Program-made: the position numbers and the translations under genes
Notes under the pieces: model-generated
The model's database searches: none
Told to the model about the DNA's origin: nothing
Seen by the model: the letters and a program-made list of their open reading frames with translations, nothing else
Source of the DNA: an archaeon
GTDB lineage: Archaea; Iainarchaeota; Iainarchaeia; Iainarchaeales; 0-14-0-20-34-12
Direction: 5' to 3'
DNA: 64,000 bases
NCBI GenBank assembly: GCA_038046645.1
Contig: JBBSVU010000016.1
Location: forward strand, 11,998-75,997
Part shown: in pieces, positions 1 to 45,877 of the stretch
How the letters are laid out: every line of letters starts with the position of its first letter
Position numbering within the stretch: position 1 is the first letter of the stretch

Positions 1-2069
1 GAATTATTTTCACTTAATACTGCGGTTCCTTTTACATAATAGAGCCTTTTTTCATTGGTTTTATGGTTCTGAATTATAACAGTGTTCTTCACAATAGGCA
101 CCAATTCAAGCAGAGTATCCATTCCTGTGCAATCTAAAGCCTCACAAATTGCTTTTACATGCTCTGCAGGAATCTTGCTTAAATTAGCCTGAAGTTCCTT
201 TTGTTTTTCAATTGTGCTTAACATGAATTGTGCTGCATCACAGAAATAGTTGTTGCAAGTATCTGCATTTATATTCTTAACATCCCAATCCCACAATATT
301 CTGTCTAACCCATATTTCTGATAAGCATCTTGGCCGGTTTCTGCAGTCTCCATGCCTGCACAGAACAAAGCGCTTTTTTTGACTGCTGGTTCACTGGCTG
401 CAGCTGCAGCTTTAACCACAGCTTCTTTCCTTTCATCTAAATCAGCTTTTGCTTCTTCTTTCACTTCTTTCTTTATAATGCATTTGAAATCCTTGCATTC
501 TTTTTTATCATCTGCACAGTCCTCATTAGTTATGCACTGCCCCTTTTTGCACATTTTTTCATAACATACTTCGTCTGTTTTACATTCTGCTTTTTCTGTA
601 CAGCTGCCTCTTTTTTTGCAAAAATTATTTACACAGTTTTCGCCTGCAGGGCAACAATTGTTGTTTGAACATTGAGTTCCCGGAGCTACTAAACAATATT
701 TTTTCCCGCCTTCTTTGAATGGTTCGCAGATGTTTGATGCACATTGAGCTGCTGTTAAACAATTAGTTCCACATTGTAATTTTGGCACACATTTCTGTTT
801 AGAACAGAAGTATCCTGCCTCACACAATTCATCCTTTAAGCATTCTACACACTTCAGTTTTGCACTGCAAACCCCAACCTCTATTGTTTCTGATTGTGTG
901 CCCCAATATTGGCAACCATCATTCTCTTTTTTGCCTTCACATGGCTCTTTTGGTTTTTCTTTAGCTTTTTCAATACAACTGCCATTATCACATTTTTCAG
1001 TTTCCTTACAATGTGCATCCCCCAAACAAAGCACGCATTGCAGTTCAGCATCGCAGTATCCAGTAATTTCTAGTTCTTTATTTATTTCACAAACATTTCC
1101 TGCGCTGACACAAGGGCTTGCGGTTTTTTCCCCTAAATATCCTGCCTGTGCAAGCCAATCATCAGCAAGTGCTTCTGATACATAAGTATTAAGCAAAAGA
1201 AGCGTTGATGGCTGCCCTGATTTTTGATAAGCAGTTTCATCCAACCTTTTGAAAAACATTCCCATGACATAATCATATTTTTTGCAGAATAGCCTGCTTT
1301 TTCTGATTATGGTTTGTTCCTCAGGGTATTTGAATTCAGTGTCATTCCTTACCAAAAGCCCGTCATATACTATGCCTTCTCCATTTCTATTCCAGCAATT
1401 AAACATATACCTTACCGAATCTTCATAATTTGGGCCAGCCATATCCTTATTTTCTTCAACCTCGCTCTTGTCTGGTTTTGTTTTTAAATAATCATAAAAC
1501 GGGATTGTGAAATTTATTGCTGTATCAGTGCCATTTTTATTTACTGCGGCAGTCATTGAATATTGTGAAACAGATGCTTTTACAAACCTCAATACTTTAT
1601 CTTTTGGGTTTGTTTCATCAGCAGCACAAGCCAGCATCTTTATTTCTTCCTTTTTCTTTCCTTTTACTTCAGCAGCATGCTCTGTTTTGTACTGTTCAAT
1701 AAGGCTTTCTACATAGGGATCATACTTTCCGCCACTTTGGGCTCCCATTTCGCAAAAATCAAATATAATTTCCTGTACCTTCTGTTGATTTAGCGTTAAC
1801 AATACCAAGGAAAGTTCCTTGCTAGCCTTGTCTGTAATTGATATTTTAACCGTGTTATCAATTTCATATCCTAAATTGCTTGGATTGACAATTGAATAGG
1901 TAGGCAATAACCTGCTCTCTCCTTCTACTAATTGGCCAAATTCAGTAGGATATGTATTGCCCGCATTTACGTTAACTAATGCTTTTATCTGCCCTCTGCC
2001 GTAAACATCCCCAATAAATACACTAAAAAATAGTACTAACAATAACCCAATCCAAACCTTATTCTTCAT
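1..2069 (-). CDS. Secreted Cys-rich protein carrying the 'ETG..DRILWDW..CDAxQF' domain (3' end outside window; not in ORF track)
   Basis: Hand-translated open frame from ATG 2069 (MKNKVWIGLLLVLFFSVFIG, signal-like) to the window edge; Cys-rich repeats at ~480-1110; LFCAGMETAETGQDAYQKYGLDRILWDWD..CNNYFCDAAQF from 368 downward. Confidence 0.85.
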   Translation of the reverse strand, partial: MKNKVWIGLLLVLFFSVFIGDVYGRGQIKALVNVNAGNTYPTEFGQLVEGESRLLPTYSIVNPSNLGYEIDNTVKISITDKASKELSLVLLTLNQQKVQEIIFDFCEMGAQSGGKYDPYVESLIEQYKTEHAAEVKGKKKEEIKMLACAADETNPKDKVLRFVKASVSQYSMTAAVNKNGTDTAINFTIPFYDYLKTKPDKSEVEENKDMAGPNYEDSVRYMFNCWNRNGEGIVYDGLLVRNDTEFKYPEEQTIIRKSRLFCKKYDYVMGMFFKRLDETAYQKSGQPSTLLLLNTYVSEALADDWLAQAGYLGEKTASPCVSAGNVCEINKELEITGYCDAELQCVLCLGDAHCKETEKCDNGSCIEKAKEKPKEPCEGKKENDGCQYWGTQSETIEVGVCSAKLKCVECLKDELCEAGYFCSKQKCVPKLQCGTNCLTAAQCASNICEPFKEGGKKYCLVAPGTQCSNNNCCPAGENCVNNFCKKRGSCTEKAECKTDEVCYEKMCKKGQCITNEDCADDKKECKDFKCIIKKEVKEEAKADLDERKEAVVKAAAAASEPAVKKSALFCAGMETAETGQDAYQKYGLDRILWDWDVKNINADTCNNYFCDAAQFMLSTIEKQKELQANLSKIPAEHVKAICEALDCTGMDTLLELVPIVKNTVIIQNHKTNEKRLYYVKGTAVLSENN

Positions 2070-2694
2070 TAGGTAATCCCTCCCCTATTGCTAAGCAATT
2101 TTCTTCTATTGTAACTATATAATCTTTTAACTCATAATAGTTAATAAATGCTTCGTCTTCATCTTCTAGGTAATTTTCAAGCCCTAATTCCTGATTTTCT
2201 GTAGGGTGCGCTACTACATATTCTTCTAATTTTTTATTGTTCTCAAGGACTAAATTATAGGCATTTTCATTATCTTGGATGGTGTTATCTAAAAGATTAA
2301 GGTTCTCGCATAATCCTTTGCTGCTTAATTTCAGCAATGTTTCTTCACCCTTTTTCAGCTTTGACTGCACTTTTAATTCATCAAGCAAAGCAACATACAA
2401 ATCAACCAAATCAGCCAGTGCTTTATTGTCAGCGTTTTTTGCCTGCAAATCCAGCAAGTCTGCCTTTGCTGTTTCCACTTTTTCTTCACTTAACACAGCC
2501 AATTTGGATTCGCTGACTGTTTCAAAAGCTACTTCATTGCTTGCAAGAATATTATTTGCAGAATTTGCCAATGCTGCAAACCCTTTTTTATCCGCAGTCT
2601 GCCCTTTTGGCAGGTTCCACAAAACATAAACTGCGGCAATAACCACAATTATTGCCAATATCCCATATACAAATCTTTTTTCCATATATACCAT
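2059..2694 (-). CDS. N-terminally membrane-anchored helical hypothetical protein
   Basis: 211 aa; N-terminal TM helix; acidic helical body; overlaps the start of the downstream gene. Confidence 0.75.
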   Translation of the reverse strand: MVYMEKRFVYGILAIIVVIAAVYVLWNLPKGQTADKKGFAALANSANNILASNEVAFETVSESKLAVLSEEKVETAKADLLDLQAKNADNKALADLVDLYVALLDELKVQSKLKKGEETLLKLSSKGLCENLNLLDNTIQDNENAYNLVLENNKKLEEYVVAHPTENQELGLENYLEDEDEAFINYYELKDYIVTIEENCLAIGEGLPNEE

Positions 2695-2733
2695 CCTTCC
2701 TTGAGAATTGTTTAGTTGTTTTATATATTACTT

Positions 2734-3885
2734 TTATTTAATATAAATATATTTGTTTCTCAGCATAATGAGTTTTTTGATTAAACTGGCAGTATATAAC
2801 TTGTTTTTTGGCTTATTGACCTTAAGCTTAGTTGTTTTGCTTTTTTGTGCTTGCCCTGACCCTGCGGTATTGTTATTCTTTTGTGTTTGATTATTGCCTG
2901 CAATAGTTACCAGACCAGTGCTATTCTGTGCTGAGTTTGTAGAAGTAGTTGCAGTGTTTTGTGTTGAGCTTGAATTAGAATTAGTTGCATTTGCCGTAGT
3001 GCTGCTTTGTGTTGAAGCTGAATTATTATTTGCCGTATTTGTTGTACTACTATTATTTTGAGCCAGTGTAGGATTTGAAGTATTTTCAGTATTTTGAGTT
3101 TGGGTATTATTCCCAGTATTTACATTAGCATCATTTGTTTGATTTCCAGTATTTGAATTATTATCCGTATTTTGTGTTTGCCCTGATGTGTTATTATTTA
3201 CATCATTGTTAGTTGCACCATTATTTACATCGGCGTTATTTGCATTATTGTTTGTATCTTGAGCAGGGTTTTCTGGTTGTGCAACTACCGAATTTTTATA
3301 ACTTGCATAATGCCCGACTATCACCCTATCAATATAGGTATTGGAATAAGCATTAACCGAACCAGCATCAACATCCTGCCAGCCGTATCTGTATGCACTG
3401 GCTGTTTTGTATAAATCATTTGAATAATAAGTCAATAGGGATTTCAAATACCAGCAGCCTCGGTCGATATTTTCTTGAGCATTGTATGCATCATTCATAA
3501 TAGGGGCATCTTCATATTTTGCTGTTGAGGGCATATTCCATTGCCAATCCACTGTTGACACTGTTGGAACCCCGGCAATCCATTCGCCTGTCAATTGGAA
3601 TAAACCTTTTCCATAATATTGCCCAAACCAGTTGGTTTCCCCTACCTCGTATGATGTTTTTTCAGATTGATTCACTGCATTTGGATTGAAGTCAGACTCC
3701 AGTTTTATGATGGCAGCGATAAAATAAGGGTCATCTATGCCATATTTTTCTGTGCAAATACTTACTATATCATTCCAATATACTTCAATAGGTTCGCTTT
3801 CAATCTTTGCAGGTATTTGATAATCATAAGCAAATCCGCCTGAAAGCAATGCCAGCAGAAAAATGGCCGTTATATATAGTTTCAT
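2734..3885 (-). CDS. Secreted lytic transglycosylase (SLT domain) with N/T/Q-rich stalk and basic C-terminus
   Basis: Signal peptide; AAIIKLESDFNPNA (catalytic Glu), GKGLFQL, NIDRGCWYL and ASAYRYG correspond to the SLT motifs. Confidence 0.85.
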   Translation of the reverse strand: MKLYITAIFLLALLSGGFAYDYQIPAKIESEPIEVYWNDIVSICTEKYGIDDPYFIAAIIKLESDFNPNAVNQSEKTSYEVGETNWFGQYYGKGLFQLTGEWIAGVPTVSTVDWQWNMPSTAKYEDAPIMNDAYNAQENIDRGCWYLKSLLTYYSNDLYKTASAYRYGWQDVDAGSVNAYSNTYIDRVIVGHYASYKNSVVAQPENPAQDTNNNANNADVNNGATNNDVNNNTSGQTQNTDNNSNTGNQTNDANVNTGNNTQTQNTENTSNPTLAQNNSSTTNTANNNSASTQSSTTANATNSNSSSTQNTATTSTNSAQNSTGLVTIAGNNQTQKNNNTAGSGQAQKSKTTKLKVNKPKNKLYTASLIKKLIMLRNKYIYIK

Positions 3886-3995
3886 TTATCGCACCATATT
3901 TAACAAAATAATACTTGTTTTAATATGTTTTGTGCTTTACTAATGTGTTACATAATTTTTTAATTGTGTAGCAGTTTAGCAAGAATGTGAATTAA

Positions 3996-4649
3996 ATGCC
4001 GTTAAACCTTATTTTTTTAGGCGCACCAGGATCTGGAAAAGGTTCGGTTGCAAAGCATTTAACCTTAGATTTAAATATTCCTCATATTTCAACCGGCGAT
4101 ATCCTGCGTGAAGAAATAAAAAAAGGTTCAGATTTGGGGAAAAAAGTCCAAAATATTGTTTCAAGCGGAACTTTGGTTGACGATCAGACTGTTGCAGATA
4201 TAATAGATAAAAGAATTTTGGAAAAGGATTGTTCGCAGGGCTTTATGCTTGATGGCTATCCTAGAACAATAAATCAAGCGAAATTGTTGCAGGAAATAAT
4301 GGAAAAGCAGAAAAAGAAAATTGCTGCAGTTATTTCCTTAAATGTCCCTGATGCCACAATAATAAAAAGGCTTTCAGGAAGGTTCTCCTGTTCAAAATGC
4401 TTATTGCAGTATAATATTTACACGCTAATGCCGCCAAAGAAATCCGGCATTTGTGATTCTTGTGGCGGACAATTAATTCAAAGGGCTGATGACAATCCTG
4501 AAACAGTGAAAAAAAGGCTTGAGATTTATAAAAAGGATACTCAGCCGTTAATTGATTATTACAAAAAGATTCATTTATTGAAGGAAGTAAATGCAGACGG
4601 TTCTATTGAAGAAAATGCTGTTGCAGTAAAGAAAGTCCTTAAGTTATAA
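3996..4649 (+). CDS. adk: Adenylate kinase, bacterial type with Zn-binding LID
   Basis: GAPGSGKG, HISTGDILR, LDGYPR, CSKC..CDSC, QRADD. Confidence 0.95.
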   Translation: MPLNLIFLGAPGSGKGSVAKHLTLDLNIPHISTGDILREEIKKGSDLGKKVQNIVSSGTLVDDQTVADIIDKRILEKDCSQGFMLDGYPRTINQAKLLQEIMEKQKKKIAAVISLNVPDATIIKRLSGRFSCSKCLLQYNIYTLMPPKKSGICDSCGGQLIQRADDNPETVKKRLEIYKKDTQPLIDYYKKIHLLKEVNADGSIEENAVAVKKVLKL

Positions 4650-10254: not shown

Positions 10255-10968
10255 TTATTTGATTGAATCCCACATGACCCTGTCTTTTGGGTTTATTGTT
10301 ACTCCGCTGCCTGTTATTTCAAACGGATGTATGTACTTTGACTGGTTTGTGCCCCTCATTTTTTTGACAAAAATGCTCCTGTTTGGCGGGCTGAAGTATA
10401 ATGCGACAATTCCATCAACAACAAATTCTTCTACTCCCATTGATGAATATTCTGTTTTCAATCCAGTGGTTTCTGTTGTCAATAATGTAGTACAGTCCAA
10501 ATCCTTCAATTTGTCCGTAAATCTGTACAACATATTCCTGACCCTTGCCTGCTCAGGCATCCAGATGGCTAAAGCTGTAATACTATCAATCACTAATCTC
10601 TTTGCGCCTATTTCTTCAACAAGTTTGGATATTACCTTTAATTCATCATCTATTTTTTTCTGCATTTCTTTCGTATCTGAAGTATCACTCAAATTTAACC
10701 TATAAATTCGCATCATGTTCTTTTCTTGCAGGCTTCTTATATCCCACCTGAAGCTTTCCATGTTCCATACAATATTCTTTAGGTTTGTTTCAAGTGTGAC
10801 AAATAGCCCAGGCTCTTTATTTTCCAAAGCGCCTCGGTATAAATATTGCATTGCAAAGATTGTTTTTCCTGTTCCCGACCCCCCAGAAACCAAGAAAGAA
10901 GACCCTTTTGGAATCCCTCCTTCTACTAGGTCATCCAAGCCAGTAATTCCACTTTTTACCCTTTCCAT
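10255..10968 (-). CDS. Single-domain KaiC/RAD55-like ATPase
   Basis: SGITGLDDL.EGGIP, GGSGTGKT, RLVIDSI, KKMRGT. Confidence 0.9.
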   Translation of the reverse strand: MERVKSGITGLDDLVEGGIPKGSSFLVSGGSGTGKTIFAMQYLYRGALENKEPGLFVTLETNLKNIVWNMESFRWDIRSLQEKNMMRIYRLNLSDTSDTKEMQKKIDDELKVISKLVEEIGAKRLVIDSITALAIWMPEQARVRNMLYRFTDKLKDLDCTTLLTTETTGLKTEYSSMGVEEFVVDGIVALYFSPPNRSIFVKKMRGTNQSKYIHPFEITGSGVTINPKDRVMWDSIK

Positions 10969-11114
10969 TAAATCACCTAATCCTTGTTAAAGAAATGATT
11001 ATATTAATATAAATTTACTTTATATAATTCTTTCTCTTGCCAGGGCATGCTTATTTTTAGCTATCTTGCGATAATGTTTAATTCATATATTGTTCTGCCA
11101 TTATTATTTATTTG

Positions 11115-11137
11115 GCATAAAGCAACTTGCTTTATGC
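11115..11137. promoter_or_regulatory. Perfect palindrome in the divergent kaiC/metF intergenic region (candidate operator)
   Basis: GCATAAAGCAA-C-TTGCTTTATGC. Confidence 0.4.
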
Positions 11138-11239
11138 TTAAATTTAGCTTAATTTTAATATTCCTATATGAATAATCTATTCAGTAAAATATTAATATGG
11201 GAATATTGAATATATTTAGGCAAGAGCTAAGCAGAATTT

Positions 11240-12235
11240 ATGGAGTTTAACGATATTATGCGATTGTTTGATTTGCGCGGAAAAAAGATAACTGACATAC
11301 TGGCTGAAAATAAATTCACGCTTTCAGTTGAAATTGTGCCATTAAGGAATGGCAAGAGTTATAGTGAAATTTTATCTGCAATTGAAAAGCTTTCCGAGTT
11401 AGGCGTAGATTTTGCTAGTGTGACTAAGGGGGCTGGCGGCGGTTTAAGAGGGGGTTCTTTGCCTTTGAGTTATTTTATTACGCAAAGATTCGGGATTAAT
11501 TCAATAGCTCATTTCACCTGCATGGAAAGGACAAAAGAGCAGATTGAAACAGAATTGGTTGATTACCACCTTTTTGGCATAAAGAATATTTTAGCATTGA
11601 GAGGGGATCCACCAGTGGGTATAAATAACTCTAACCTAAAATCAGATTATGATTATGCTTGGCAGCTTGTTAGGCAGATAAATTCCATGAATAATGGAAT
11701 CTATCTTAAGAGGGCTGAAACAGAAACTGGCGCAGGGGAAAAAACTGATTTTTGTATTGGGGTAGCAGCCTATCCTTCAGCACCTGATATTGATAAACAA
11801 ATAGGGTATTTGGCAAAAAAGGTTGATGAAGGCGCAGAATATGCCCTAACCCAAATGATTTTTGACAGTTCTGTTTATTTTAATTATTTGGACAAGTGTA
11901 AAGATTCTGGAATAAACATCCCAATAATTCCAGGAATAAGGCCAATAGTGAATAAGGCGCAATGCGAATTCAGTGAAAAATTCTTTGGTTTAAAGGTGCC
12001 TAATGAGCTTAAGACTGCTGTTTCTGTCAATGACCCGGCAATTGCAAGGGAGCATGGTTTGAAATATGCAATAGACTTATGTGATGAATTGAAAAAAAAT
12101 GGAGCCCCAGGCATGCATTTATTTGTGATAAATGACATTAATGCAGCATGTGAAATAGTAAATTCGATGAAAAAAAAGGAAAAAAATTCGCAATTTTGCA
12201 GGGATTTTTATAGTAATCCCCCTAAAATAAATTAA
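11240..12235 (+). CDS. metF: 5,10-methylenetetrahydrofolate reductase
   Basis: SVEIVP, SVTKGAGG, AHFTC, NILALRGDPP, TQMIFD. Confidence 0.92.
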   Translation: MEFNDIMRLFDLRGKKITDILAENKFTLSVEIVPLRNGKSYSEILSAIEKLSELGVDFASVTKGAGGGLRGGSLPLSYFITQRFGINSIAHFTCMERTKEQIETELVDYHLFGIKNILALRGDPPVGINNSNLKSDYDYAWQLVRQINSMNNGIYLKRAETETGAGEKTDFCIGVAAYPSAPDIDKQIGYLAKKVDEGAEYALTQMIFDSSVYFNYLDKCKDSGINIPIIPGIRPIVNKAQCEFSEKFFGLKVPNELKTAVSVNDPAIAREHGLKYAIDLCDELKKNGAPGMHLFVINDINAACEIVNSMKKKEKNSQFCRDFYSNPPKIN

Positions 12236-12260
12236 TAACCTGTTCTTCAAATATTTTTCT

Positions 12261-12839
12261 ATGACCAAATTGCCCAATTTTAAAATAACTGTTTCCACAA
12301 GTGAAATTCTAAAACAATTGCGCGATGAAAAACCAGATGAAAGGACAAAAAGAATGATTGCCAGTTTGATAAATAAAAGCAAAGCCCTAATTAATCCTAA
12401 AGCAATTGTTAAAGAATTCAAGATAACCAGAAAAGGGAAAGATTCTGTTGAAATAGGCAAAAAATTAAAAATAAAAAGCAGCAATGTTGCATTCTTGCTT
12501 AAGGATTGTGAAACTGTAACTTTTTTTGCCTGCACGCTTTCCTCAGATTTCCAGGAAAAATCCGAAAATCTTTTAGTTTCCATAGTTGTTGACGCTATTG
12601 GCTCAGTTGCTGTTGAGAAACTTGCTGAAAGGGTAAACAAAGTAATTTTTGAAAAGGCAAAGAAAAAAGGCTTTAAAATCACCCAAAGGTACAGTTGTGG
12701 GTTTGCAGACTGGTCTCTGGATGACCAGCCAAAGATATTGAAAATGCTTGATGCTTCAAAGATTGGATTGAAGGTGAATAAGGCAAATATCTTGATTCCG
12801 AGAAAGTCAATTACTGCAATAATCGGGTGGCATAAGTGA
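12261..12839 (+). CDS. Stand-alone methionine synthase reactivation (SAM-binding) domain
   Basis: FACTL, DAIGSVAVE, RYSCGFADW, IPRKSITAIIG; lies between metF and metH. Confidence 0.85.
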   Translation: MTKLPNFKITVSTSEILKQLRDEKPDERTKRMIASLINKSKALINPKAIVKEFKITRKGKDSVEIGKKLKIKSSNVAFLLKDCETVTFFACTLSSDFQEKSENLLVSIVVDAIGSVAVEKLAERVNKVIFEKAKKKGFKITQRYSCGFADWSLDDQPKILKMLDASKIGLKVNKANILIPRKSITAIIGWHK

Positions 12840-15172
12840 ATATCCTAAAGGAAATGCAGAATAGAATCCTTATTTTGGACGGGGCAATGGGCACAATGAT
12901 TAGCTCATTAGGCTATGCTGAACCTTTGAATGAATTGCTTAACCTGAAAAAGCCCGAGGTTATAGAAAGCATACATAAAGCATATTTGGATGCAGGCGCA
13001 GACATAATTGAAACAAATACATTTTCCGCCAACCGAATAAAGCTTTCTGAATTCAATTTGCAGGATAAAATAAAAGAAATAAATGAAAGCGCTGTTGAGA
13101 TTGCAAGGAAAGCTGCAAAATCAAAAGCTTTTGTTGCTGCAGATATTTCCTTTTCAGGGAAATATATTGAGCCATTAGGCAATCTGACCTTTGACCAAGC
13201 ATATGAAAATTATGCTGAACAAATCAGCTATTTGAAAAAGGCGGATTTGCTTTTGATTGAAACCCTTATGGATATCAAGGATTTGAAAACTTCATTGATA
13301 GCTGCACAGCATAATTGGAAAAAGCCGATATTCTGTTCAATGACCTTTGATAATGATAGAACTTCTACCGGGACTGATATTAAGAGTTATTTAACGGTTG
13401 CAGAATCTTTTGATGTTGACGCTGTTGGTGTTAATTGTGGAGATCCAAAATTGCTTATTAAGATTGTGGAGAAGATGTGCAAGAATACAAACAAGCCTGT
13501 TTTAGTTTATCCTAATGCAGGCATCCCAAAATTGTTAAACGGAAAAACAGTTTTCAATGTCAAGCCAAGAGGAATGGTTCCCTATGCCAAAAAATTTGCT
13601 TCATTTGGTGCCAACATTATTGGCGGATGTTGCGGCACTACGCCTTTACACATAAAAGAGATTGCAAATGCAGTCAAGCAGCTTAAACCCAAAAAAAGAG
13701 ATAATGAAATAGCTTCAAGGGTTTGCTCTGCAAGCAGGACAGTAGAATTTGACAAGAAAATAATTATTGGCGAGAGCATTAACCCTACAAATAAAAAAGA
13801 TTTGGAAAAAGAGATTGAGGAAGGCAAGACTTCTTTAATAAAAACTATTGCATTAAGCGAAAAAAAGGTAGGTGCAGATATTCTTGACGTGAATGTTTGC
13901 ACCCCTATGGGCAACGAAGAAAGCATGCTGCAAAAGGCAGTTCTTGATATTCAATCAGCTGTTGATTTACCTCTTTGCCTGGATTCCAAAAACATAAATG
14001 CATTGGAAAATGCACTCAAAATGTGCAGCGGAAAGCCAATAATTAATTCTGTTGATGGTGAAAAAAAGCACCTAGAAAGCATATTACTCTTGGCAAAGCG
14101 CTATGGTGCATCAGTTATTGCCCTGACCCTTGACAATAAAGGAATACCTAAAACTGCAAATGAAAGATTAAAAATCGCAAAAAGGATTTTGGGCGAAGCA
14201 AAAAAAATCGGTTTAAGCAGCAATGATATTTTATTCGATACCTTAACAATTACTCTTGCAGTTGATGAAAATAATGCGAAAATTACTTTGGATGCACTGA
14301 AAAAAGTAAAAAAATTAGGGCTAAATACAGTCCTTGGCGTTAGCAATATCTCCCATGGATTGCCAAATAGAAGGCAGATTAATTTTTCATTTTTGGTTGA
14401 TGCATTGAATGCAGGGTTGGATGCCGCTATCTTGAATCCTTTTGACAGTGTAATGGTTGAAGCAATGCATGATGTCAAAAGGTTCAGCGATAAAAAATCC
14501 ATTGAAAAGTATATGCGGGCATTCAAGGAGAAAAAAACATTAAATAAAAAGCAGCCGATTAAGGAACAATTGAAGCAGGCAATTATTGACGGCCTGGATG
14601 ACAGCATTGAATCATTGGTGCAAAAAGCCTTGGGAGAATTTTCCCCGCTTGAAATAAATAATTACCTGATTGAAGGCATGGAAGTTGTCGGTAAAAGATT
14701 CAAGGACAAGAAAATATTTTTGCCAAGTGTTTTAATTTCTGCATCTGCAATGAAAAAAGCAACAAATTTCCTGAAGAAAAAAATTGGAAAGAAACAGGAT
14801 AACAAATCAAAGATTGTTTTTGCCACTGTGAAAAATGACATACATGATTTGGGGAAAAATATTGTAATAACACTTTTGGAAAGCCATGGTTTTAATGTGA
14901 TTGACTTGGGTGCGGATGTTTCAGAAAAAAAGATAGTTGAGGCAGCAATCAGGGAAAATGCAGGCATGGTTTGTTTAAGCGCTTTAATGACCACAACAAT
15001 GGTTGAAATGCCGAAAGTGATTGCAGCATTAAGGAATGCAAATTTTAACAAGCCAATATTGATTGGCGGAGCAATTGTAAACCAGAAATTTGCCGAGCAA
15101 TGCAACGCCTATTATGCCAGAAATGCGGTAGAAGGCGTTGATAAAATAAAGGGAATTTTAGCTAGGAAATAG
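12836..15172 (+). CDS. metH: Cobalamin-dependent methionine synthase (Hcy, pterin and B12 domains; no fused reactivation domain)
   Basis: DGAMGT, GVNC, PNAG, GGCCG, IIGESINPT, DIHDLGKN, SALMTTT. Confidence 0.93.
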   Translation: MNILKEMQNRILILDGAMGTMISSLGYAEPLNELLNLKKPEVIESIHKAYLDAGADIIETNTFSANRIKLSEFNLQDKIKEINESAVEIARKAAKSKAFVAADISFSGKYIEPLGNLTFDQAYENYAEQISYLKKADLLLIETLMDIKDLKTSLIAAQHNWKKPIFCSMTFDNDRTSTGTDIKSYLTVAESFDVDAVGVNCGDPKLLIKIVEKMCKNTNKPVLVYPNAGIPKLLNGKTVFNVKPRGMVPYAKKFASFGANIIGGCCGTTPLHIKEIANAVKQLKPKKRDNEIASRVCSASRTVEFDKKIIIGESINPTNKKDLEKEIEEGKTSLIKTIALSEKKVGADILDVNVCTPMGNEESMLQKAVLDIQSAVDLPLCLDSKNINALENALKMCSGKPIINSVDGEKKHLESILLLAKRYGASVIALTLDNKGIPKTANERLKIAKRILGEAKKIGLSSNDILFDTLTITLAVDENNAKITLDALKKVKKLGLNTVLGVSNISHGLPNRRQINFSFLVDALNAGLDAAILNPFDSVMVEAMHDVKRFSDKKSIEKYMRAFKEKKTLNKKQPIKEQLKQAIIDGLDDSIESLVQKALGEFSPLEINNYLIEGMEVVGKRFKDKKIFLPSVLISASAMKKATNFLKKKIGKKQDNKSKIVFATVKNDIHDLGKNIVITLLESHGFNVIDLGADVSEKKIVEAAIRENAGMVCLSALMTTTMVEMPKVIAALRNANFNKPILIGGAIVNQKFAEQCNAYYARNAVEGVDKIKGILARK

Positions 15173-15341
15173 CTAATTTTGCCTTTTTTGGCCTAATTTA
15201 TTAATTCAACAAACGGAAAAGCTTTGGCGCAACGCTTAAATAGTTCTTTTTGTATTTATTCTATTGCCTTATGGCACTGGCAATGGTGGTTAGGGACATC
15301 ATTTGCTGAAGATTTGCCATGCAAAGTTCCACTGTGAGTTT

Positions 15342-16055
15342 ATGGAAGAAGAAATTGTAGATGAAATCCAAATAAATAAGGAAGACGACTTAGTTGATTT
15401 AATCTACATGCCAGCATGGAAGATGATTCTAATAGATGTAATAAAAAATGAGAAATTTGACATCTGGAATATCGATATTTCACTTTTGGCTGAGAAATAT
15501 CTGACTAGAATAAGGGCTTTGCAGGATTCAAACCTAAGGATTCCGGCAAATGCAATCCTTGCTTCTGCATTGCTTTTGCGCTTCAAGAGCAAAACAATAA
15601 AAATTTCTTCGATTGAAGAGGAAGATGAGGATCTGCTTGCACAGCAGCAAGCTAACCTGTATCAGTTTGACGGTTTTATTCCTGAATTAACATCAACAGG
15701 AAAGATGAGGACCGGCAATATTTCACTTGATGAATTGGTGACATCAATTGAAGAAGTCCTTGAAAAAACCTCGAGGCGTGCAATGAAAGTTCCTGTTGAT
15801 AAGCCAGAATTTTTATTAAATTTAGGGTCTGTTGACTGGGACAAGAAAATGGATGAGGTTTTGGCATTAATCCTGCAGAATGTTGATTCCCAAGGCATGG
15901 TCTTATTTTCTTCATTGGCAAATGCTGAAAATGTTGACCATCTGATTGAAACATTTATGTCATTGCTTTTCTTGGCAAACAAAAAGAAGATTTCATTATT
16001 CCAAGAAGAATTTTTCGGCGAAATTTTTATTAATGTCTTGCAGCAGGCAAGCTGA
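15342..16055 (+). CDS. scpA: Segregation/condensation protein A (kleisin)
   Basis: DIWNIDISLLAEKYL, ANAILASALLLRFKS, LFQEEFFGEI. Confidence 0.88.
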   Translation: MEEEIVDEIQINKEDDLVDLIYMPAWKMILIDVIKNEKFDIWNIDISLLAEKYLTRIRALQDSNLRIPANAILASALLLRFKSKTIKISSIEEEDEDLLAQQQANLYQFDGFIPELTSTGKMRTGNISLDELVTSIEEVLEKTSRRAMKVPVDKPEFLLNLGSVDWDKKMDEVLALILQNVDSQGMVLFSSLANAENVDHLIETFMSLLFLANKKKISLFQEEFFGEIFINVLQQAS

Positions 16056-16108
16056 TTAAAAAATAGCAGGCATTTTCCCAACAAGTTATTCGCAAATGTT
16101 GTGCTTGT

Positions 16109-16753
16109 TTAATCATACTTTATTGCAATTGCCTGGATAACATCTGCGATTTCCTTTCCTTTGTCGAAAACATCTTCTAATTCTTCATGCAAATCCTTGT
16201 ATTTTATCAAATCAGTTGCCTTCAATTTTTCATCCCTGAATAGGGCTGAGATAGCTTCTTCATATAAGGAATCGCCCTTGTTCTCAATTAGATATAAGTG
16301 CTCGCACAGCCTTTTTGCCTCAGGCAATTTTCTTAAATTATTCATTATTGAATGTATTTTCTTGGCAAGCTCATAAGCTAATTCTGCTTGCCTGATCATT
16401 AATGGGTTAACGTTTTCAATCCTGTACATTTCCATTTTTCTTGATGTGCCATCCATTAAGTCAAGGATATCATCCATATACACAGTCAAATGGTGTATAT
16501 CTTCCCTGTCAAACGGCGTTACCAGTTTTTTATTCAGCAGTTCAATAATCTCGTATGTTTGCGTATCCCCTTTATCCTCTGCCTTTTTTATTTTTTCAAT
16601 AATCAGCATTCGTTTCTGCTCATCTAAGGAATTATATTCCTTTAAAAAATTAGAAAATTCTTCTGCAGCCCCAAGGACTATTTCGCTTTGCTTGCTTAAC
16701 ATATCAAAAAATTTTGCCTCTTTTGGCATAAAAAAATTTATTATCTTGCGCAT
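16109..16753 (-). CDS. DUF47/PhoU-like phosphate transport regulator
   Basis: EDKGD, LVTPFDREDI, MDDILD, ENKGD. Confidence 0.9.
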   Translation of the reverse strand: MRKIINFFMPKEAKFFDMLSKQSEIVLGAAEEFSNFLKEYNSLDEQKRMLIIEKIKKAEDKGDTQTYEIIELLNKKLVTPFDREDIHHLTVYMDDILDLMDGTSRKMEMYRIENVNPLMIRQAELAYELAKKIHSIMNNLRKLPEAKRLCEHLYLIENKGDSLYEEAISALFRDEKLKATDLIKYKDLHEELEDVFDKGKEIADVIQAIAIKYD

Positions 16754-16848
16754 GATTATTTTGCACCTCAAAAGGTTTATAAATATTAAATTGCTGTTGA
16801 ACCGCCCTGTGCTTTTGAAACTTTTTTATAAGGGAGATTTTTTATAGT

Positions 16849-17760
16849 TTACAAAAAATATAGTGCAACAAACCCAACAATAAAAAGCAGCAAGTGAATG
16901 TAAATTATCCTGTACACCTTTGCCATATCTATTTTTTTTGGGTCTTTCAAAGCTTGCCTGTAGAGCGGAAATGTTAATAATGAAAGCACAATTAGCCAGT
17001 TATATTTCAATGGCAAATAACCCCAATCTTTTAATCCTTGTAGGTATTCCAGCCCAGTTAAAGTCATTAATATAAAAGAAATTGCTCCCAAAGTGATTGC
17101 AATATATGAAAGAATCATTAAATTTTTTTCTCCGAATAAAACAACACTGCTTCTATACCCTAATTCATCCTCTAAATTTTTTGAGGACATCCGGTATAGG
17201 CAGAATCCGCCAAACTGCAATCCGACAATAAACACTAAAGGCAATAGCGGAGCATTAAATGCTTGTGTCAATAAAACCCAGCCAGAGTAAAACCTGAATA
17301 TTGGATTAATTGCCGAGCCAGAGATTAAATCTACAATAGGCCTTTTTTTGAAATTAAATGGTTTTATTGTATATAACGTTTGGTTTGTTACCATGACAAT
17401 TAGGCATATGAGAAATAGGGTCCCAAGATTAAAACCAATCCAGAAAGAAATTGCCAACAATACTGCAACAAGCAATTTTGCCAAATTTATGCTTACATCT
17501 CCGCTTGGCAATGGCCTTTTTTTCTTTATGGGGTGCAAGGCATCCACCCCTTTATCGAATATGTCATTTACAGTGTAAAGGGCAGACCACAGGAAACAAA
17601 CAGAAACCATTCCGTAAAACAGGTTTAAGAAATCTATATCTAGGTTGAACATGTAATGCGCCACAATGACGGCAATTAACATGTTCCCTATCGATTTTGT
17701 CCATTCTGCAGGCCTCATCAAATAAACAAGCCCTGCTGCCTTTGTAAATAAGTCTGACAT
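16849..17760 (-). CDS. UbiA family prenyltransferase
   Basis: LMRP.EW.K, NDIFD..VD..HP.KK.RPLPSG; multiple TM helices. Confidence 0.88.
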   Translation of the reverse strand: MSDLFTKAAGLVYLMRPAEWTKSIGNMLIAVIVAHYMFNLDIDFLNLFYGMVSVCFLWSALYTVNDIFDKGVDALHPIKKKRPLPSGDVSINLAKLLVAVLLAISFWIGFNLGTLFLICLIVMVTNQTLYTIKPFNFKKRPIVDLISGSAINPIFRFYSGWVLLTQAFNAPLLPLVFIVGLQFGGFCLYRMSSKNLEDELGYRSSVVLFGEKNLMILSYIAITLGAISFILMTLTGLEYLQGLKDWGYLPLKYNWLIVLSLLTFPLYRQALKDPKKIDMAKVYRIIYIHLLLFIVGFVALYFL

Positions 17761-41944: not shown

Positions 41945-44900
41945 ATGAAAAAACTTTTGATTATCTGCATTTTGATGCTTTTTCCTTTAATTTCGGCTGA
42001 GCTAGGGGTTTTTGCCGAAAATACTTCAACAGCATCCAATGTTTCTGGATATACTTTAATAATTAAGGGCCTGAATTTAGGGGATTTACCAAAAGATAAT
42101 TCTACTTATGAATATAATTTCTATGAAAGCGTTATGGAACGTTTGGTAAAAGGTGCAGAAGGCAAAGAGGCAGCAATATGTGTTCCACATCTTTCCTGTG
42201 AAACTAAGCCTTGCACAATGAAACAAAGATGTGATAATAGGCTGTATGCTGTAGGTTTGGCAAAAAAAGAAATTAGTTCACACAAAACTATTTTTAATGC
42301 AATAAATGCTAAAAAAGGTTCATTGCAGCCTTATTTGAAGCATGATGCTTCTTCATTCATAGCTGCGGTTGTAAGAAATGAATCCTATTTTGACCCGAAT
42401 AATCATTCAGATAGAGGAGATACCTCCTGCGGATTGATGCAGGTTTCAATAGGTTATTATTGCCCAGAACGGCAGAAGCAGGGAAAGAAGTGTGCTGGCT
42501 GCAACTGCAAGGATCCAGAAATTGCAAAGGATTGCTGGAAAGGCTGGAATGACCCAGAAGAAAATCTTGATGTTGGAATTAATACTGCTTTGCTGACTTG
42601 GGCTAAATCAGCAGAAAGCAAACCAGGGTGTGAAAAAGTCCTTGATTCTTACATTGCAGGGCTTGAAGATTATAAGATTACGTTAAGGGAAGTGATGATG
42701 GCTGCAGGCCATAATTGGGGCGGAGCCTTTATAACAAAATGTATTGTAGATGAGCCACAGAAAACAATTACCTTGATTTCAGACAAACTTTCTAGTGGCA
42801 GAAAATTAGCCTATGCTGGAAAATTGCAATATCCTGCAGGCATAATAAGTTCAACTATATTATATCAGCTTGCAATGGCAGGCCTTGAATTCAATGCAGA
42901 AAAAATGGATGAAAAGCCGGCAAATTTATTCTGTTCCGGTTTTGACAATGCAGAAACCGGTGCATTGGCATATAAAAAATATGGTTTTGACCGCATATTA
43001 TGGGATTGGGACTTTGAAAATATTACTTCAAATACCTGTGAAAATAAATTCTGCGATGCAACCCAATTTTTATTAAGCATGCTTGCAAAGGACGAATATG
43101 TGTCACAGGCTTTGAAAAAAATCCCCTCTGAACATATTAAAGGCATTCTGCAGGCAGAGCCTGATTTAGAAAATGCAACAATGCTGAGTGATTTACTGCC
43201 CATAACTAAAGAAACAGTTTTAGTTAAGGATAATGCATTGGGTGCTGATAAAACACAAATTTATTTCCTTTCAGAAAACAGTTTGCTTGTTCCAAGCAAT
43301 GATTGTAATGTTCAAATATCTGACCCTAAAAATGGTTTGGTTAAAGAGCCATTTGAGGTAGCATCTGATTACCTAAGATCTTGTTTAACCCTAGACAAAG
43401 TGCGTTCTTTTGATGAATCAGTTTATCTGGCAAACACGGTTAAAGGTAAGGATATAAAATTAGGTTCATGTTCACTTGCTGAAAGGCTTGGTTCCCTCCA
43501 GTATTCTGCAAAAAAATGCGGCAATAATGAAAATGATATTCTGATTCTTGTCAGGCCAAATGCAAATGACAATCCTGTTTTCAGCAAGCTTGTTGATTCC
43601 GGCGTATTCAATAGCATTTCAAGGAAGACTTCAGTTGTAGCTTATGTTTTTACCTTGCCTGAACTCGAGCTACTAATTTTCAATCTGTCAAATGCCTTAA
43701 AAAATAAAGATTGTGAAAATCCCAATCTTTTTGGCACAACAATAGAGCTTTCAGTAAATGCAAAGGATTGTTTCCAAGAGAAAGAACTGTTGATTAGTGA
43801 TTTCTTTACTGCTTTGCAGACAAACATTACAGGCATTCAAAGGGCAGTTAGATATGATGCCGCAGAACTTATGTTAGATAGCCAAGGCAATGCCCTTAAA
43901 AAATACATTGCAGAAAATGCTTCAAACCTTGCATTTTTAGGTACAGAAATAATCCCAAGTAGCAAGGTTTTTCTCATTGGCGATAATTTTACTTCAGAGG
44001 ATTTCCTTTCAGATTTTGAATTAGCCTATCCTTCTTATGATTTGAACAGATATAAAATAATCAATGAAAATGCTGATTCAGCATCAGGCCAAGGTCCGGT
44101 ATCAGGCCAATCTGTTGATTCAACATTGAATCAATTAGAATCAGGGCAATATTCTGCCAGCATTGATTTGCCTGTTAAAATAAAAGATAATTCAGTAGTT
44201 GAGCCTGATGCAGTATCTTTTAAAGAAATCAATTTTGCTCTCGAAAAAACACTGGCTCAAATTGATACTGGCAATGGGAATGAATCTGCCTATGCTTCAA
44301 ACCCTTTCCTGAAACTAGCATTTGATGGCATGCTCGGGATAGGCAAGGGGAATAAAAGGGAAGGCTATGGAACATCCAGCAAAGGTTCACTCACGCTTAC
44401 TGAATTATATTCAACTCCTGAAATAATTTCAACATCTGGATTTGCGGTTTCTTCAGAGGATAATCCTGATGCAGATTTAAGTGACATACTGTCAGGAAAG
44501 AAAATATTTTCTTTGGAACAGGAAGGCTCTAATTATAATATTTCTTTTATTGAACAAATACCCACATTGTTTTCATTGGATACAAATGTTTCACAAACAA
44601 TTGCATTAAGATTTTTGGAAGATTCTTCTGTATTTGAAAAACCGCTTAGCTTGAATTTTTTAACGCCAAAAGGCACATCCATAACCCCAACTATTGGAAT
44701 CCCAAATAAATATTCCTACTGCGGCAATGTGCAGGGCAATGTTTACCTTATGCCAACAAAAACTGTTGGTAAATATCAAACAATGTTTTATATTCCTACA
44801 CAACAGTCAGCATCTTTGCCAAATAAGGTTGAGATAACTTGCGCAAGGGATAAAATAAAATTAAGCACTTACTCCTTGGGAAGCCCTTTGGCTGCTGAGC

Positions 44901-45877
44901 AGAAAGCATTATCTGCAAGCCCGCAAGCAGGTACAATTAATTTAATCACCGCCAGCCCGCAAAAAATTTCCAGCCTTTTAAATTATTTTGATATGATTAA
45001 ACAAAAGAAAACGTGCTTTGTTCCATCTGCTACTGGTTTTGCTTTGGTTTGGAATTCTGAACAAATAATGGTTGAGATTGCAAATGCTTTCAAAAATGAT
45101 GTTCAGTTAGCACAAGAATCTGCAACTGGTTCTGAAGCTTATCAGGAAAATATTTGTGATAGTTCAGGCAATTGCTGGTCATCTTATGTTCCAGGCATTA
45201 TTGAAGTTGATTGTGCTGATGGTGTTGGACCTGACTGCATTTTAACTCTTAATGAAATGCTTAAAAATTGTCCAACAGCTGAAGAAATCGAACAATTTAA
45301 TTCAGATTTTGAAATAACTTCAGATATTCCTTTTGAAGAATATGCCTGCGAGAATGGCAAGAACCCAAAATATTTTGGTGTTGGGTTAGATTCACATTTA
45401 GTTCTCTATCAAATGTTGAGTTTAATGAACTATTTGGAATTCTCTAAGCCCTTGCCTTGGACAGATAAACAATTATATTACTGGTTCAGGGATAGCGTAG
45501 AAAATATTCACCTAGATAGCTCAACTGAGTATCCCTTCTATTTTGATGATTCGATTCATTTTAGATTATCTGATATGGGGAGAAAATGGAATGGCCAATG
45601 GATAGATGAACAACTAGATGGAGGTATGGCAAACTTAATTATACTGGCAGCCCATGAGGCAAGGCATGCCCAAAAAAATCATACCTGTGATTTTTTATCA
45701 GAAGTAAATAATTATATTCGTGATTTATCTTTGGGAGAGTTAGGTTCTTGGGGCGTACAATATTATCTCGAGAAATGGATGGCAGATTATTTATCTGAAA
45801 ATCTGCAAACCTATGGTGCTAGAAAAAGTTTGGAATACCGTGCAAAGGATATTCTAAAAACAAGGTTTTGTGGCTGA
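41945..45877 (+). CDS. 1310-aa secreted protein: SLT domain + 'DRILWDW/CDATQF' domain + C-terminal HExxH region
   Basis: Signal peptide; AAVVRNESYFDPN, CGLMQV, NLDVG, AGHNWG; LFCSGFDNAETGALAYKKYGFDRILWDW; AAHEARHAQ. Confidence 0.85.
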   Translation: MKKLLIICILMLFPLISAELGVFAENTSTASNVSGYTLIIKGLNLGDLPKDNSTYEYNFYESVMERLVKGAEGKEAAICVPHLSCETKPCTMKQRCDNRLYAVGLAKKEISSHKTIFNAINAKKGSLQPYLKHDASSFIAAVVRNESYFDPNNHSDRGDTSCGLMQVSIGYYCPERQKQGKKCAGCNCKDPEIAKDCWKGWNDPEENLDVGINTALLTWAKSAESKPGCEKVLDSYIAGLEDYKITLREVMMAAGHNWGGAFITKCIVDEPQKTITLISDKLSSGRKLAYAGKLQYPAGIISSTILYQLAMAGLEFNAEKMDEKPANLFCSGFDNAETGALAYKKYGFDRILWDWDFENITSNTCENKFCDATQFLLSMLAKDEYVSQALKKIPSEHIKGILQAEPDLENATMLSDLLPITKETVLVKDNALGADKTQIYFLSENSLLVPSNDCNVQISDPKNGLVKEPFEVASDYLRSCLTLDKVRSFDESVYLANTVKGKDIKLGSCSLAERLGSLQYSAKKCGNNENDILILVRPNANDNPVFSKLVDSGVFNSISRKTSVVAYVFTLPELELLIFNLSNALKNKDCENPNLFGTTIELSVNAKDCFQEKELLISDFFTALQTNITGIQRAVRYDAAELMLDSQGNALKKYIAENASNLAFLGTEIIPSSKVFLIGDNFTSEDFLSDFELAYPSYDLNRYKIINENADSASGQGPVSGQSVDSTLNQLESGQYSASIDLPVKIKDNSVVEPDAVSFKEINFALEKTLAQIDTGNGNESAYASNPFLKLAFDGMLGIGKGNKREGYGTSSKGSLTLTELYSTPEIISTSGFAVSSEDNPDADLSDILSGKKIFSLEQEGSNYNISFIEQIPTLFSLDTNVSQTIALRFLEDSSVFEKPLSLNFLTPKGTSITPTIGIPNKYSYCGNVQGNVYLMPTKTVGKYQTMFYIPTQQSASLPNKVEITCARDKIKLSTYSLGSPLAAEQKALSASPQAGTINLITASPQKISSLLNYFDMIKQKKTCFVPSATGFALVWNSEQIMVEIANAFKNDVQLAQESATGSEAYQENICDSSGNCWSSYVPGIIEVDCADGVGPDCILTLNEMLKNCPTAEEIEQFNSDFEITSDIPFEEYACENGKNPKYFGVGLDSHLVLYQMLSLMNYLEFSKPLPWTDKQLYYWFRDSVENIHLDSSTEYPFYFDDSIHFRLSDMGRKWNGQWIDEQLDGGMANLIILAAHEARHAQKNHTCDFLSEVNNYIRDLSLGELGSWGVQYYLEKWMADYLSENLQTYGARKSLEYRAKDILKTRFCG

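Follow-up and report, generated by a model that had tools for sequence, protein, structure and literature searches.

What use has an archaeon for secreted proteins with SLT (lytic-transglycosylase-type) domains, and what is the role of the large secreted protein and the small membrane protein encoded beside them? The question is raised by a stretch of 64,000 nucleotides, here called the window, from a tiny archaeon of groundwater, of the order Iainarchaeales (GCA_038046645.1, contig JBBSVU010000016.1; G000:C16:11998-75997 in our labelling of genome and contig). At its left end three genes lie in the same direction on the minus strand. P0003 (window 2734..3885) is read from its open reading frame (ORF) and translation as a 383-aa secreted, stand-alone SLT protein with a signal peptide. 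P0004, or "P4" (2059..2694), encodes 211 aa, comprising an N-terminal transmembrane (TM) helix and a helical bundle according to ORF, alignment and AlphaFold2 (AF2) model. The third, the edge gene, encodes a secreted protein and leaves the window after its 5' 689 codons (ORF at 3..2069); on the genome contig it is complete at G000:C16:9780-14066 on the minus strand and encodes 1428 aa. The reading that we prefer, and to which we give about an even chance, is that these genes belong to a P4 cassette, in which a module of the edge protein, the core, would be a target-binding head, the SLT domain would cut the bacterial wall, and P4 would tether or mature its partner.

The genes are closely packed. 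P0003 and P4 are spaced by 39 nt, and the P4 stop and the start of the edge gene share an 11-nt overlap (ATGAAGAATAA); this spacing and overlap support an operon. Contigs from another study (run X3), spanning 1588-2270 and 2563-4000 at 100% identity, bridge both gene junctions, so the gene arrangement is not an assembly artefact. We also note an AT-rich, TATA-like motif in the 39-nt gap (window 2695-2733, minus strand) and a GGAAGG just 5' of the P4 start codon. Given the TATA-like motif, P0003 may be transcribed apart from P4 and the edge gene, and the latter two may stand under their own promoter; the motif could also be a chance occurrence at 36% GC. An earlier note on this DNA had named these three genes together with P0002 (window 41945..45877, plus strand), a 1310-aa secreted SLT fusion and paralogue of the core as judged by ORF, Pfam and BLASTP. 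All four are present where it had placed them, the edge gene running off the window.

The SLT domain of P0003 occupies residues about 21-200 (window 3286-3825, minus strand) and is followed by an N/T/Q/S-rich low-complexity tail. Against Pfam SLT (PF01464) it scores 37.0 bits (E 2.8e-9), the cut-off being 21.3, and it was found again in a whole-genome scan. A catalytic-type glutamate, Glu63, lies in the sequence LESDFNP, which is aligned with IESSFNP of MltC 9vi7; GLFQ is present at residue 94, and AYRYG was read from the translation. These correspond to the E-S, GLMQ-type and AYNxG-type catalytic motifs of lytic transglycosylases. Profile and motifs identify P0003 as a putative family 1 lytic transglycosylase. 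Lytic transglycosylases split the MurNAc-GlcNAc bonds of peptidoglycan and leave 1,6-anhydro-MurNAc. The SLT domain of P0002 (residues 96-325, window 42230-42919, plus strand) carries a Cys-rich insert, with E146 in NES and a GLMQ motif. Against the same cut-off of 21.3 its PF01464 score is 16.7 bits in hmmscan, 20.4 in the genome scan and 22.6 "with its neighbours in the frame". NE146S and GLMQ align with both paralogues in this genome, and the variant with the Cys-rich insert is common to P0002 and the SLT proteins on contigs C8 and C22 described below. In total, the 1.17-Mb genome holds five SLT-bearing ORFs.

The small-subunit ribosomal RNA of this genome is archaeal. Neither a PBP transpeptidase nor FtsW/RodA was found in the genome, which is 89% complete, and the one Mur-ligase-type match belongs to a family that is also matched in archaeal control genomes. 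From its gene content, the archaeon does not appear to make bacterial wall material itself. Most DPANN archaea are regarded as living on other cells, and their known hosts are, to our knowledge, archaea; secreted SLT proteins have been seen as hinting at attachment to bacteria in some of them. For the substrate class, peptidoglycan is argued from a P4-linked protein of a related genome, G009, which joins an SLT domain and a muramoyl-alanine amidase in one chain.

In P4 a TM helix at residues ~6-26 is followed by a predicted extracellular helical bundle (AF2 pLDDT 89.6). An alignment of 21 sequences (A3) retains the N-terminal TM helix, the helical ectodomain and two invariant cysteines, C129 and, close to the C-terminus, C200, while its members share only 14-23% identity with P0004. 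Among 196 genomes of the order, P0004 as query found relatives in 19, in addition to two paralogues in its own genome; the A3 profile extends the family to 92 of the 196 genomes and to 50 of 73 genera. No fold relative was returned by Foldseek against the PDB, and no consistent Pfam family was matched. By these searches P0004 founds an unnamed putative family, P4. A relation to type IV pilins was considered and dropped, as the N-termini in A3 hold no consistent cleavage motif. A complex prediction for the P4 ectodomain (residues 36-211, with A3) and residues 25-320 of the edge protein gave a score of 0.00, which is uninformative either way.

The two paralogues stand in comparable surroundings. 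The one at G000 C8:5291-6097 lies upstream of a 1595-aa protein with Metallophos, SLT and GDSL domains, and that at C22:18662-19261 heads a 656-aa secreted protein and an 855-aa SLT protein. All three solid P4 loci of this genome (C16, C8 and C22) thus contain an SLT-domain gene. The fifth SLT ORF of the genome (G000:C11:30635-31603, minus strand; ~322 aa, Pfam SLT E 2.5e-16) is adjoined by neither P4 nor core in searches with local hidden Markov models (HMMs).

The downstream neighbours were surveyed for 27 P4 genes, three in this genome and 24 at loci around P0004 matches. In all but one of the 27, an ORF in the same direction with a signal-like N-terminus begins within 1.5 kb downstream, and 20 of these 26 ORFs are at most 11 nt from P4 or overlap it. 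Pfam detects SLT in five of 23 downstream proteins (G008, G009, G014, G015 and G017). That of G008 (955 aa) combines SLT with GDSL, and that of G009 (2291 aa) combines SLT with Amidase_2 (E 3.3e-15). The G009 gene, ORF 10794-17669 (minus strand) of locus L059 (G009:C10:14000-33900), is situated between two P4 genes, and a 2007-aa secreted protein is encoded downstream. Inhibitor_I9 with Peptidase_S8 occurs in two of the 23 (G059 and G051), both of which also bear the core by local HMM. DUF116 and a MopE-type Cys motif are single cases, as are matches to DUF6705 and CarboxypepD_reg below the cut-off. An all-against-all BLAST found no domain common to all the downstream proteins, and Cys-richness is not universal among them. 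Core proteins follow P4 in G000, G059, G051, G055 and G168.

A hand cross-match of genome-scan rows, in which about 31 genomes hold both SLT and P4, yields 12 genomes, from four families, in which an SLT domain and P4 share a contig at a distance of at most 10 kb (G000, G008, G009, G010-G015, G017, G055 and, at 7.7 kb, G020). In family f3, P4 is followed by a 1150-1550-aa SLT protein in seven of nine genomes. Pfam SLT matches occur in 60 of the 196 genomes, usually between one and a few of them for ~1 Mb of genome, and this rarity makes chance adjacency to P4 unlikely; the genomes are related, and the count ignores their tree. The membrane-anchored middle gene to which the earlier note had drawn attention therefore belongs to a family that recurs beside SLT-bearing exoproteins in these 12 genomes.

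Such linkage bears also on a different role for P4, that of an immunity or inhibitor protein for the adjoining hydrolase rather than an anchor or helper. The models would be the periplasmic lysozyme inhibitors and Tgi/Tsi, the immunity proteins for type VI muramidase and amidase effectors. P4 is small and is encoded tightly beside secreted hydrolases, and its high divergence is as expected of partner-specific binders. In the archaeon, however, with no peptidoglycan synthesis found, there would be nothing to protect; moreover, P4 is encoded upstream and is paired also with proteins that contain no recognised enzyme. We consider such a role for P4 very improbable.

The second component of the proposed cassette is the module shared by the edge protein and P0002. 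The earlier note had seen it as a domain of ~120 aa, from peptides that we locate at window 144-368 (minus strand) and 42926-43150 (plus strand). The domain is real and lies at those coordinates, but its size is ~750-770 aa; only the first 130 residues (edge residues 560-689, window 3..392, minus strand), with the remainder upstream of window base 1, could be seen in the window. BLASTP of this in-window part against P0002 gives 56 of 129 identical residues (43%, E 8e-32), and the full edge protein matches P0002 over residues 323-1079 at 33% identity (E 4.7e-93). The core so defined spans edge residues 560-1330 and P0002 residues 320-1081 (window 42902-45187, plus strand); in P0002 it is followed by an HExxH C-terminal domain (residues 1086-1310, window 45200-45874, plus strand). 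A third copy forms the C-terminal end of a 2729-aa ORF (C1:35100-43286) that has an N-terminal TM segment and CarboxypepD_reg/Ig-like (immunoglobulin-like) arrays. No Pfam-A or NCBIfam profile covers the core in any of the three proteins. A functional link between the two window loci, 40 kb apart, had been suggested as well. The core paralogy stands, but joint function is not supported. The 1310-aa gene has no adjacent P4; judged from these alignments, the two loci are tied by common descent of the core only. We also note that a second giant at the C1 locus, a 2677-aa ORF, holds only the first core motif, matched at G000:C1:49540-49710 (plus strand) over profile positions 16-72 with E 1.4e-7. 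In other proteins, too, it is this short N-terminal stretch that most often occurs on its own.

With a profile built from the three copies, the core was detected in 138 of the 196 order genomes, including 51 of the 55 of high quality, mostly in open frames of 2300-2700 aa, and in none of 19 genomes of the phylum outside the order when the family tallies of two genome scans are compared. The expectation that the shared domain is both unnamed and conserved is thus borne out, and no named S-layer or housekeeping family was matched. A HMMER scan of 1.84 billion representative proteins returned 171 matches at E<=1e-3, 54 of them at <=1e-10. The architectures of the best 150 of these 171 comprise 52 giants (at least 1800 aa), 90 mid-size proteins (300-1799 aa) and eight shorter ones. 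Among the relatives there are compact ones of ~440 aa, such as P0115 and P0034. Each of the 52 giants begins with Met. A TM-like segment is seen among the first 100 residues of 50 of them and at the C-terminus of none; in 32 giants no more than 40 aa separate the end of the core from the C-terminus. The N-terminal anchor and the C-terminal position of the core indicate that in giants the core is the free distal end and not the anchor. Pfam was run on 19 giants, the other 33 being checked with local SLT HMMs only; one of the 19 has a CN_hydrolase domain (P0023) and one has no match, the remainder being Ig-like arrays.

Among the 90 mid-size proteins, Pfam at E<=1e-4 detects a domain in eight. 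Peptidase_S8 is fused to the core in P0037, P0045 and P0086, Beta-lactamase in P0020 and CN_hydrolase in P0062; Peptidase_M64 is C-terminal of the core in P0039, P0127 has an apiosidase-like match below the cut-off, and one protein has an Ig domain. The Pfam genome scan adds a 1903-aa protein of G055 (= P0050), in which the core precedes a canonical SLT domain at 787-919, and a 1043-aa frame in G054 has the same order. In G168:C23 and G016:C4, giants with SLT and giants with the core are neighbours on one strand. The earlier note had proposed an HMM search with the core copies and a tabulation of fused domains; run over the order genomes and the protein representatives, it yields varied hydrolase partners in a minority. 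Recombination of the core with different partners is borne out by an orphan head with Cys-rich repeats, SLT and Ig-like arrays in this genome, and by subtilase, a beta-lactamase fold, CN-hydrolase and SLT elsewhere. Judged by its predicted domain companions, the core is portable and has been joined to hydrolases repeatedly, in a minority of cases and on either side.

These architectures bear directly on the function that the earlier note had assigned to the core, a self-anchoring scaffold by which exchangeable N-terminal modules, either an adhesin or a wall-lysing enzyme, would be presented on the surface of the archaeon. The N-terminal partners do vary (orphan head, SLT, subtilase, beta-lactamase fold, CN-hydrolase), and in 33 of the 90 mid-size proteins the additional sequence of at least 250 aa is N-terminal only. 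In 15 others, however, it is C-terminal only, in another 15 it flanks the core on both sides, and 27 lack it altogether. An SLT domain comes after the core in G055 and G054, and HExxH does so in P0002; in 50 of the 52 giants it is the N-terminus that is anchored, with the core distal. No S-layer or anchor family was detected in the core with Pfam-A or NCBIfam. In their translations, the edge protein and P0002 each show a cleavable signal peptide but neither a TM segment nor a C-terminal anchor, so that other retention would be needed if they are kept on the cell. A scaffold that displays N-terminal cargo is supported only in part by these architectures, and we consider it doubtful.

The structure of the core was predicted with AF2. 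In the alignment of 28 divergent sequences that served as input (A2), C46, C51, Q55, P649, W731 and N732 are invariant, and W36, D52, D369, G420, Y492, W600 and C719 nearly so; the most conserved motif (W36, C46, C51, D52 and Q55 in core numbering) falls inside the first 130 residues. The AF2 model (mean pLDDT 77.8, pTM 0.79) has a helical N-terminal part, a mixed alpha/beta middle and beta-sandwich C-terminal parts, among which a fold search found weak adhesin-like or carbohydrate-binding-module (CBM)-like sandwiches. For the whole module, Foldseek against the PDB gave nothing at E<=1e-3, a VIA-wide search was unconvincing, BFVD gave nothing, and ESM Atlas scores were at most 0.78, which is at chance level. 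If the core were an enzyme of an unrecognised class, the fusions would be multi-enzyme proteins. The invariance or near-invariance of D52, Q55, D369, Y492 and N732 across such divergent sequences would fit an enzyme, as would the lack of a clear fold relative in these searches. No catalytic motif is recognised, however; the conserved set consists mainly of Cys, Trp, Gly and Pro, typical of structural cores, and the sandwich parts resemble binding domains. Catalysis by the core is thus highly unlikely.

The evidence can now be assembled into the mechanism that we prefer. A P4 cassette consists of a small, membrane-anchored helical P4 protein encoded directly upstream of a large signal-peptide exoprotein, to which it is probably translationally coupled. 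The region at window 3-3885 is one of three such cassettes in this archaeon, each in a cluster that holds an SLT-type domain. The exoprotein here is a 1428-aa mosaic of an orphan head, a Cys-rich stalk, the ~770-aa core and a small Cys-knot-like tail. The core is the free distal C-terminal end of N-anchored giants found across the order, and has been copied into shorter secreted proteins beside hydrolases. It would serve as a head that binds the target surface, in a role like that of the cell-wall-binding domain of lysins and adhesins, as its position at the fibre tip, its fusion to enzymes that cut walls and proteins, and its weak adhesin/CBM-like sandwich suggest. The SLT domain, and in relatives an amidase or subtilase, would cut bacterial wall material. 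P4 would hold the secreted partner at the archaeal surface or aid its maturation; the membrane anchor, the tight gene coupling and a divergence that fits partner-specific contacts point to such a role. A wider proposal goes further, in that P4 cassettes would form an undescribed surface-weapon or attachment system, in which a P4 dock holds interchangeable secreted enzymes (peptidoglycan lytic transglycosylase, muramoyl-alanine amidase or subtilase), many with the core head shared with giants, so that these archaea of small genome recognise, hold and open bacteria. We regard this wider proposal as improbable on present grounds.

Several observations weigh against the preferred mechanism. The P4 loci inspected were found through P0004 and are clustered in few families, so that they are related rather than independent. 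No Pfam match at E<=1e-3 exists for 13 of the 23 P4-downstream proteins, and three more have only unrelated or below-cut-off ones; most of these proteins contain no recognised enzyme, and P4 is therefore not specific to SLT or core. Likewise, 82 of the 90 mid-size core proteins have no Pfam domain, and 17 of the 19 scanned giants show Ig-like arrays only, with no enzyme. The TATA-like motif between P0003 and P4 may split the "operon". The P0003-type SLT itself occurs in four of the 196 genomes and is beside P4 in one of the four; in G005, G007 and G009 neither P4 nor core adjoins it by local HMM, and conservation of the operon's SLT gene with the core is not supported.

Part of these observations would be accommodated if the core were a housekeeping envelope module, a fibre tip or S-layer-like element unrelated to peptidoglycan lysis, and the SLT neighbourhood a strain-specific accident. 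The near-universal presence of the core in high-quality genomes, the enzyme-free Ig arrays of the giants, the scattered P0003-type SLT and the orphan N-domain of the edge protein are in line with such a module. An accident would not explain the repeated fusions of core and hydrolase in independent architectures, or the co-localisation of P4 and SLT in 12 genomes of four families; three of the five SLT ORFs of this genome would, furthermore, have to fall at its three solid P4 loci by coincidence. We judge the housekeeping explanation unlikely, and prefer the P4 cassette with a putative target-binding core.

The edge protein itself is composite. Its signal peptide (residues 1-24) is followed by an orphan N-domain (25-318, window 1116-1997, minus strand), Cys-rich repeats (about 319-540, window 450-1112, minus strand), the core and a C-terminal tail (about 1321-1428, G000:C16:9780-10100, beyond the window). 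There are 58 Cys, with a maximum of 25 per 150 aa in the Cys-rich stretch. The tail holds three acidic repeats, DP(E/D)..(D/E)F(A/G)(G/E)(M/D).K/EI, and six Cys spaced C-C-CC-C-C, a motif reminiscent of a cystine knot. The N-domain was found in no other genome of the 196, residues 1-559 have no relative among the metagenome contigs searched, and ESM Atlas gave no usable match to the N-domain. The sole relative of the N-domain found is P0005 (1501 aa), an orthologue that a word-based search with the core had returned at 69% identity, together with P0002 alone. Its identity to the edge protein falls from 89% in the N-domain to 78% in the Cys-rich part and to 62-75% in the core; it has a 140-aa insertion ahead of the core and an unrelated tail (16% identity). 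The differences between the two proteins, as aligned, form a mosaic pattern. Short additional X3 contigs at window 664-809 and 1248-1379, with 21 and 18 differences per ~140 bases, stand beside the identical main contig; they point to a second, diverged allele of this part of the gene (Cys-rich repeats and N-domain) within the community, which may come from a P0005-type strain.

Two further genes lie directly 3' of the edge gene on the same strand. A Fic/DOC-domain protein (E 3e-19) is encoded at L008:8625-9584 (minus strand), and an AAA_14 and DUF4143 ATPase at L008:7125-8387 (minus strand), beyond window base 1. Elsewhere in the order, in the single-contig relative G083 at L078 (G083:C1:658000-675000), P4 and two secreted proteins of ~480-500 aa are found ~4 kb upstream of a 2842-aa giant, and the core-bearing 2683-aa giant is located ~20 kb further on. 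P4 may therefore head a giant-fibre locus in G083.

The locus is of interest on several counts. The operon is compact, with an SLT domain of a size suited to expression and assay. P4 is an unnamed membrane-partner family that marks exoprotein cassettes in about half of the order's genomes, and the 770-aa end module of giant fibres emerges as a portable unit combined with wall- and protein-cutting enzymes. If the core does bind bacterial surfaces, the recognition device of a whole archaeal order would have been named, and with it a handle for finding partners or prey.

Comparison with known systems places these parts more closely. Modular lysins and autolysins combine a catalytic domain with a cell-wall-binding domain. 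The proteins described here would be alike in joining an enzyme to a non-catalytic module that is shuffled between proteins; at ~770 aa, however, the core is far larger than known wall-binding domains, and no similarity to them was detected. For P4, the SlaA/SlaB pair of the Sulfolobales offers a possible model. The two are encoded in one operon, and SlaB, with a C-terminal TM segment and a coiled coil, is a membrane-anchored helical stalk that holds the large secreted surface protein. The likeness would lie in the gene pair, one for a small helical protein with a membrane anchor and one for a large protein that is exported. In contrast to SlaB, P4 has its TM segment at the N-terminus (6-26) and shows no sequence or fold match, and its partners are variable enzymes rather than a lattice protein. 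In polymorphic toxin systems a variable C-terminal toxin module is followed by a small cognate immunity gene downstream. Here P4 is upstream and forms a conserved family, and variable modules stand on either side of the core.

P0003 resembles the family 1 lytic transglycosylases (PF01464; MltC, EmtA, Slt70) in profile and in its E-S, GLxQ and AYxxG-type motifs. Those enzymes are bacterial and periplasmic, whereas the predicted enzymes here would be secreted outside an archaeon in which no peptidoglycan synthesis was detected. The closest descriptions come from other DPANN archaea. Large extracellular SLT-bearing proteins of Pacearchaeota and Woesearchaeota (fam00969) have been described and proposed, in the relevant passages, to bind or degrade bacterial walls (PMC8204110), and large SLT-bearing proteins are noted in three DPANN metagenome-assembled genomes in the corresponding part of a second article (PMC10936187). 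As described in these passages, the fam00969 proteins are alike in being DPANN, secreted, large and SLT-bearing (PMC8204110, PMC10936187). They belong to a different phylum, and their descriptions in those passages, on which the comparison is based, make no mention of a 770-aa core, an upstream membrane partner or a stand-alone SLT operon. A report from 2025 on bacteria-killing peptidoglycan hydrolases of archaea (PLoS Biol, PMC12352652) has in common with the present reading the idea that archaea release such enzymes against bacteria. The terms SLT, lytic transglycosylase, GH23, operon and Iainarchae are absent from its main text, and DPANN appears in its references only; its enzyme families and organisms probably differ from those here. 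A limited literature search, which did not extend to supplements, turned up neither the core nor a partner protein like P4. The comparison suggests that the locus fits a known theme, that of DPANN archaea with secreted murein-cutting giants, and that the core and P4 are undescribed building blocks within it. Taken together, the predicted parts suggest a toolkit for touching or attacking bacteria, built from pieces that are reused among related archaea.

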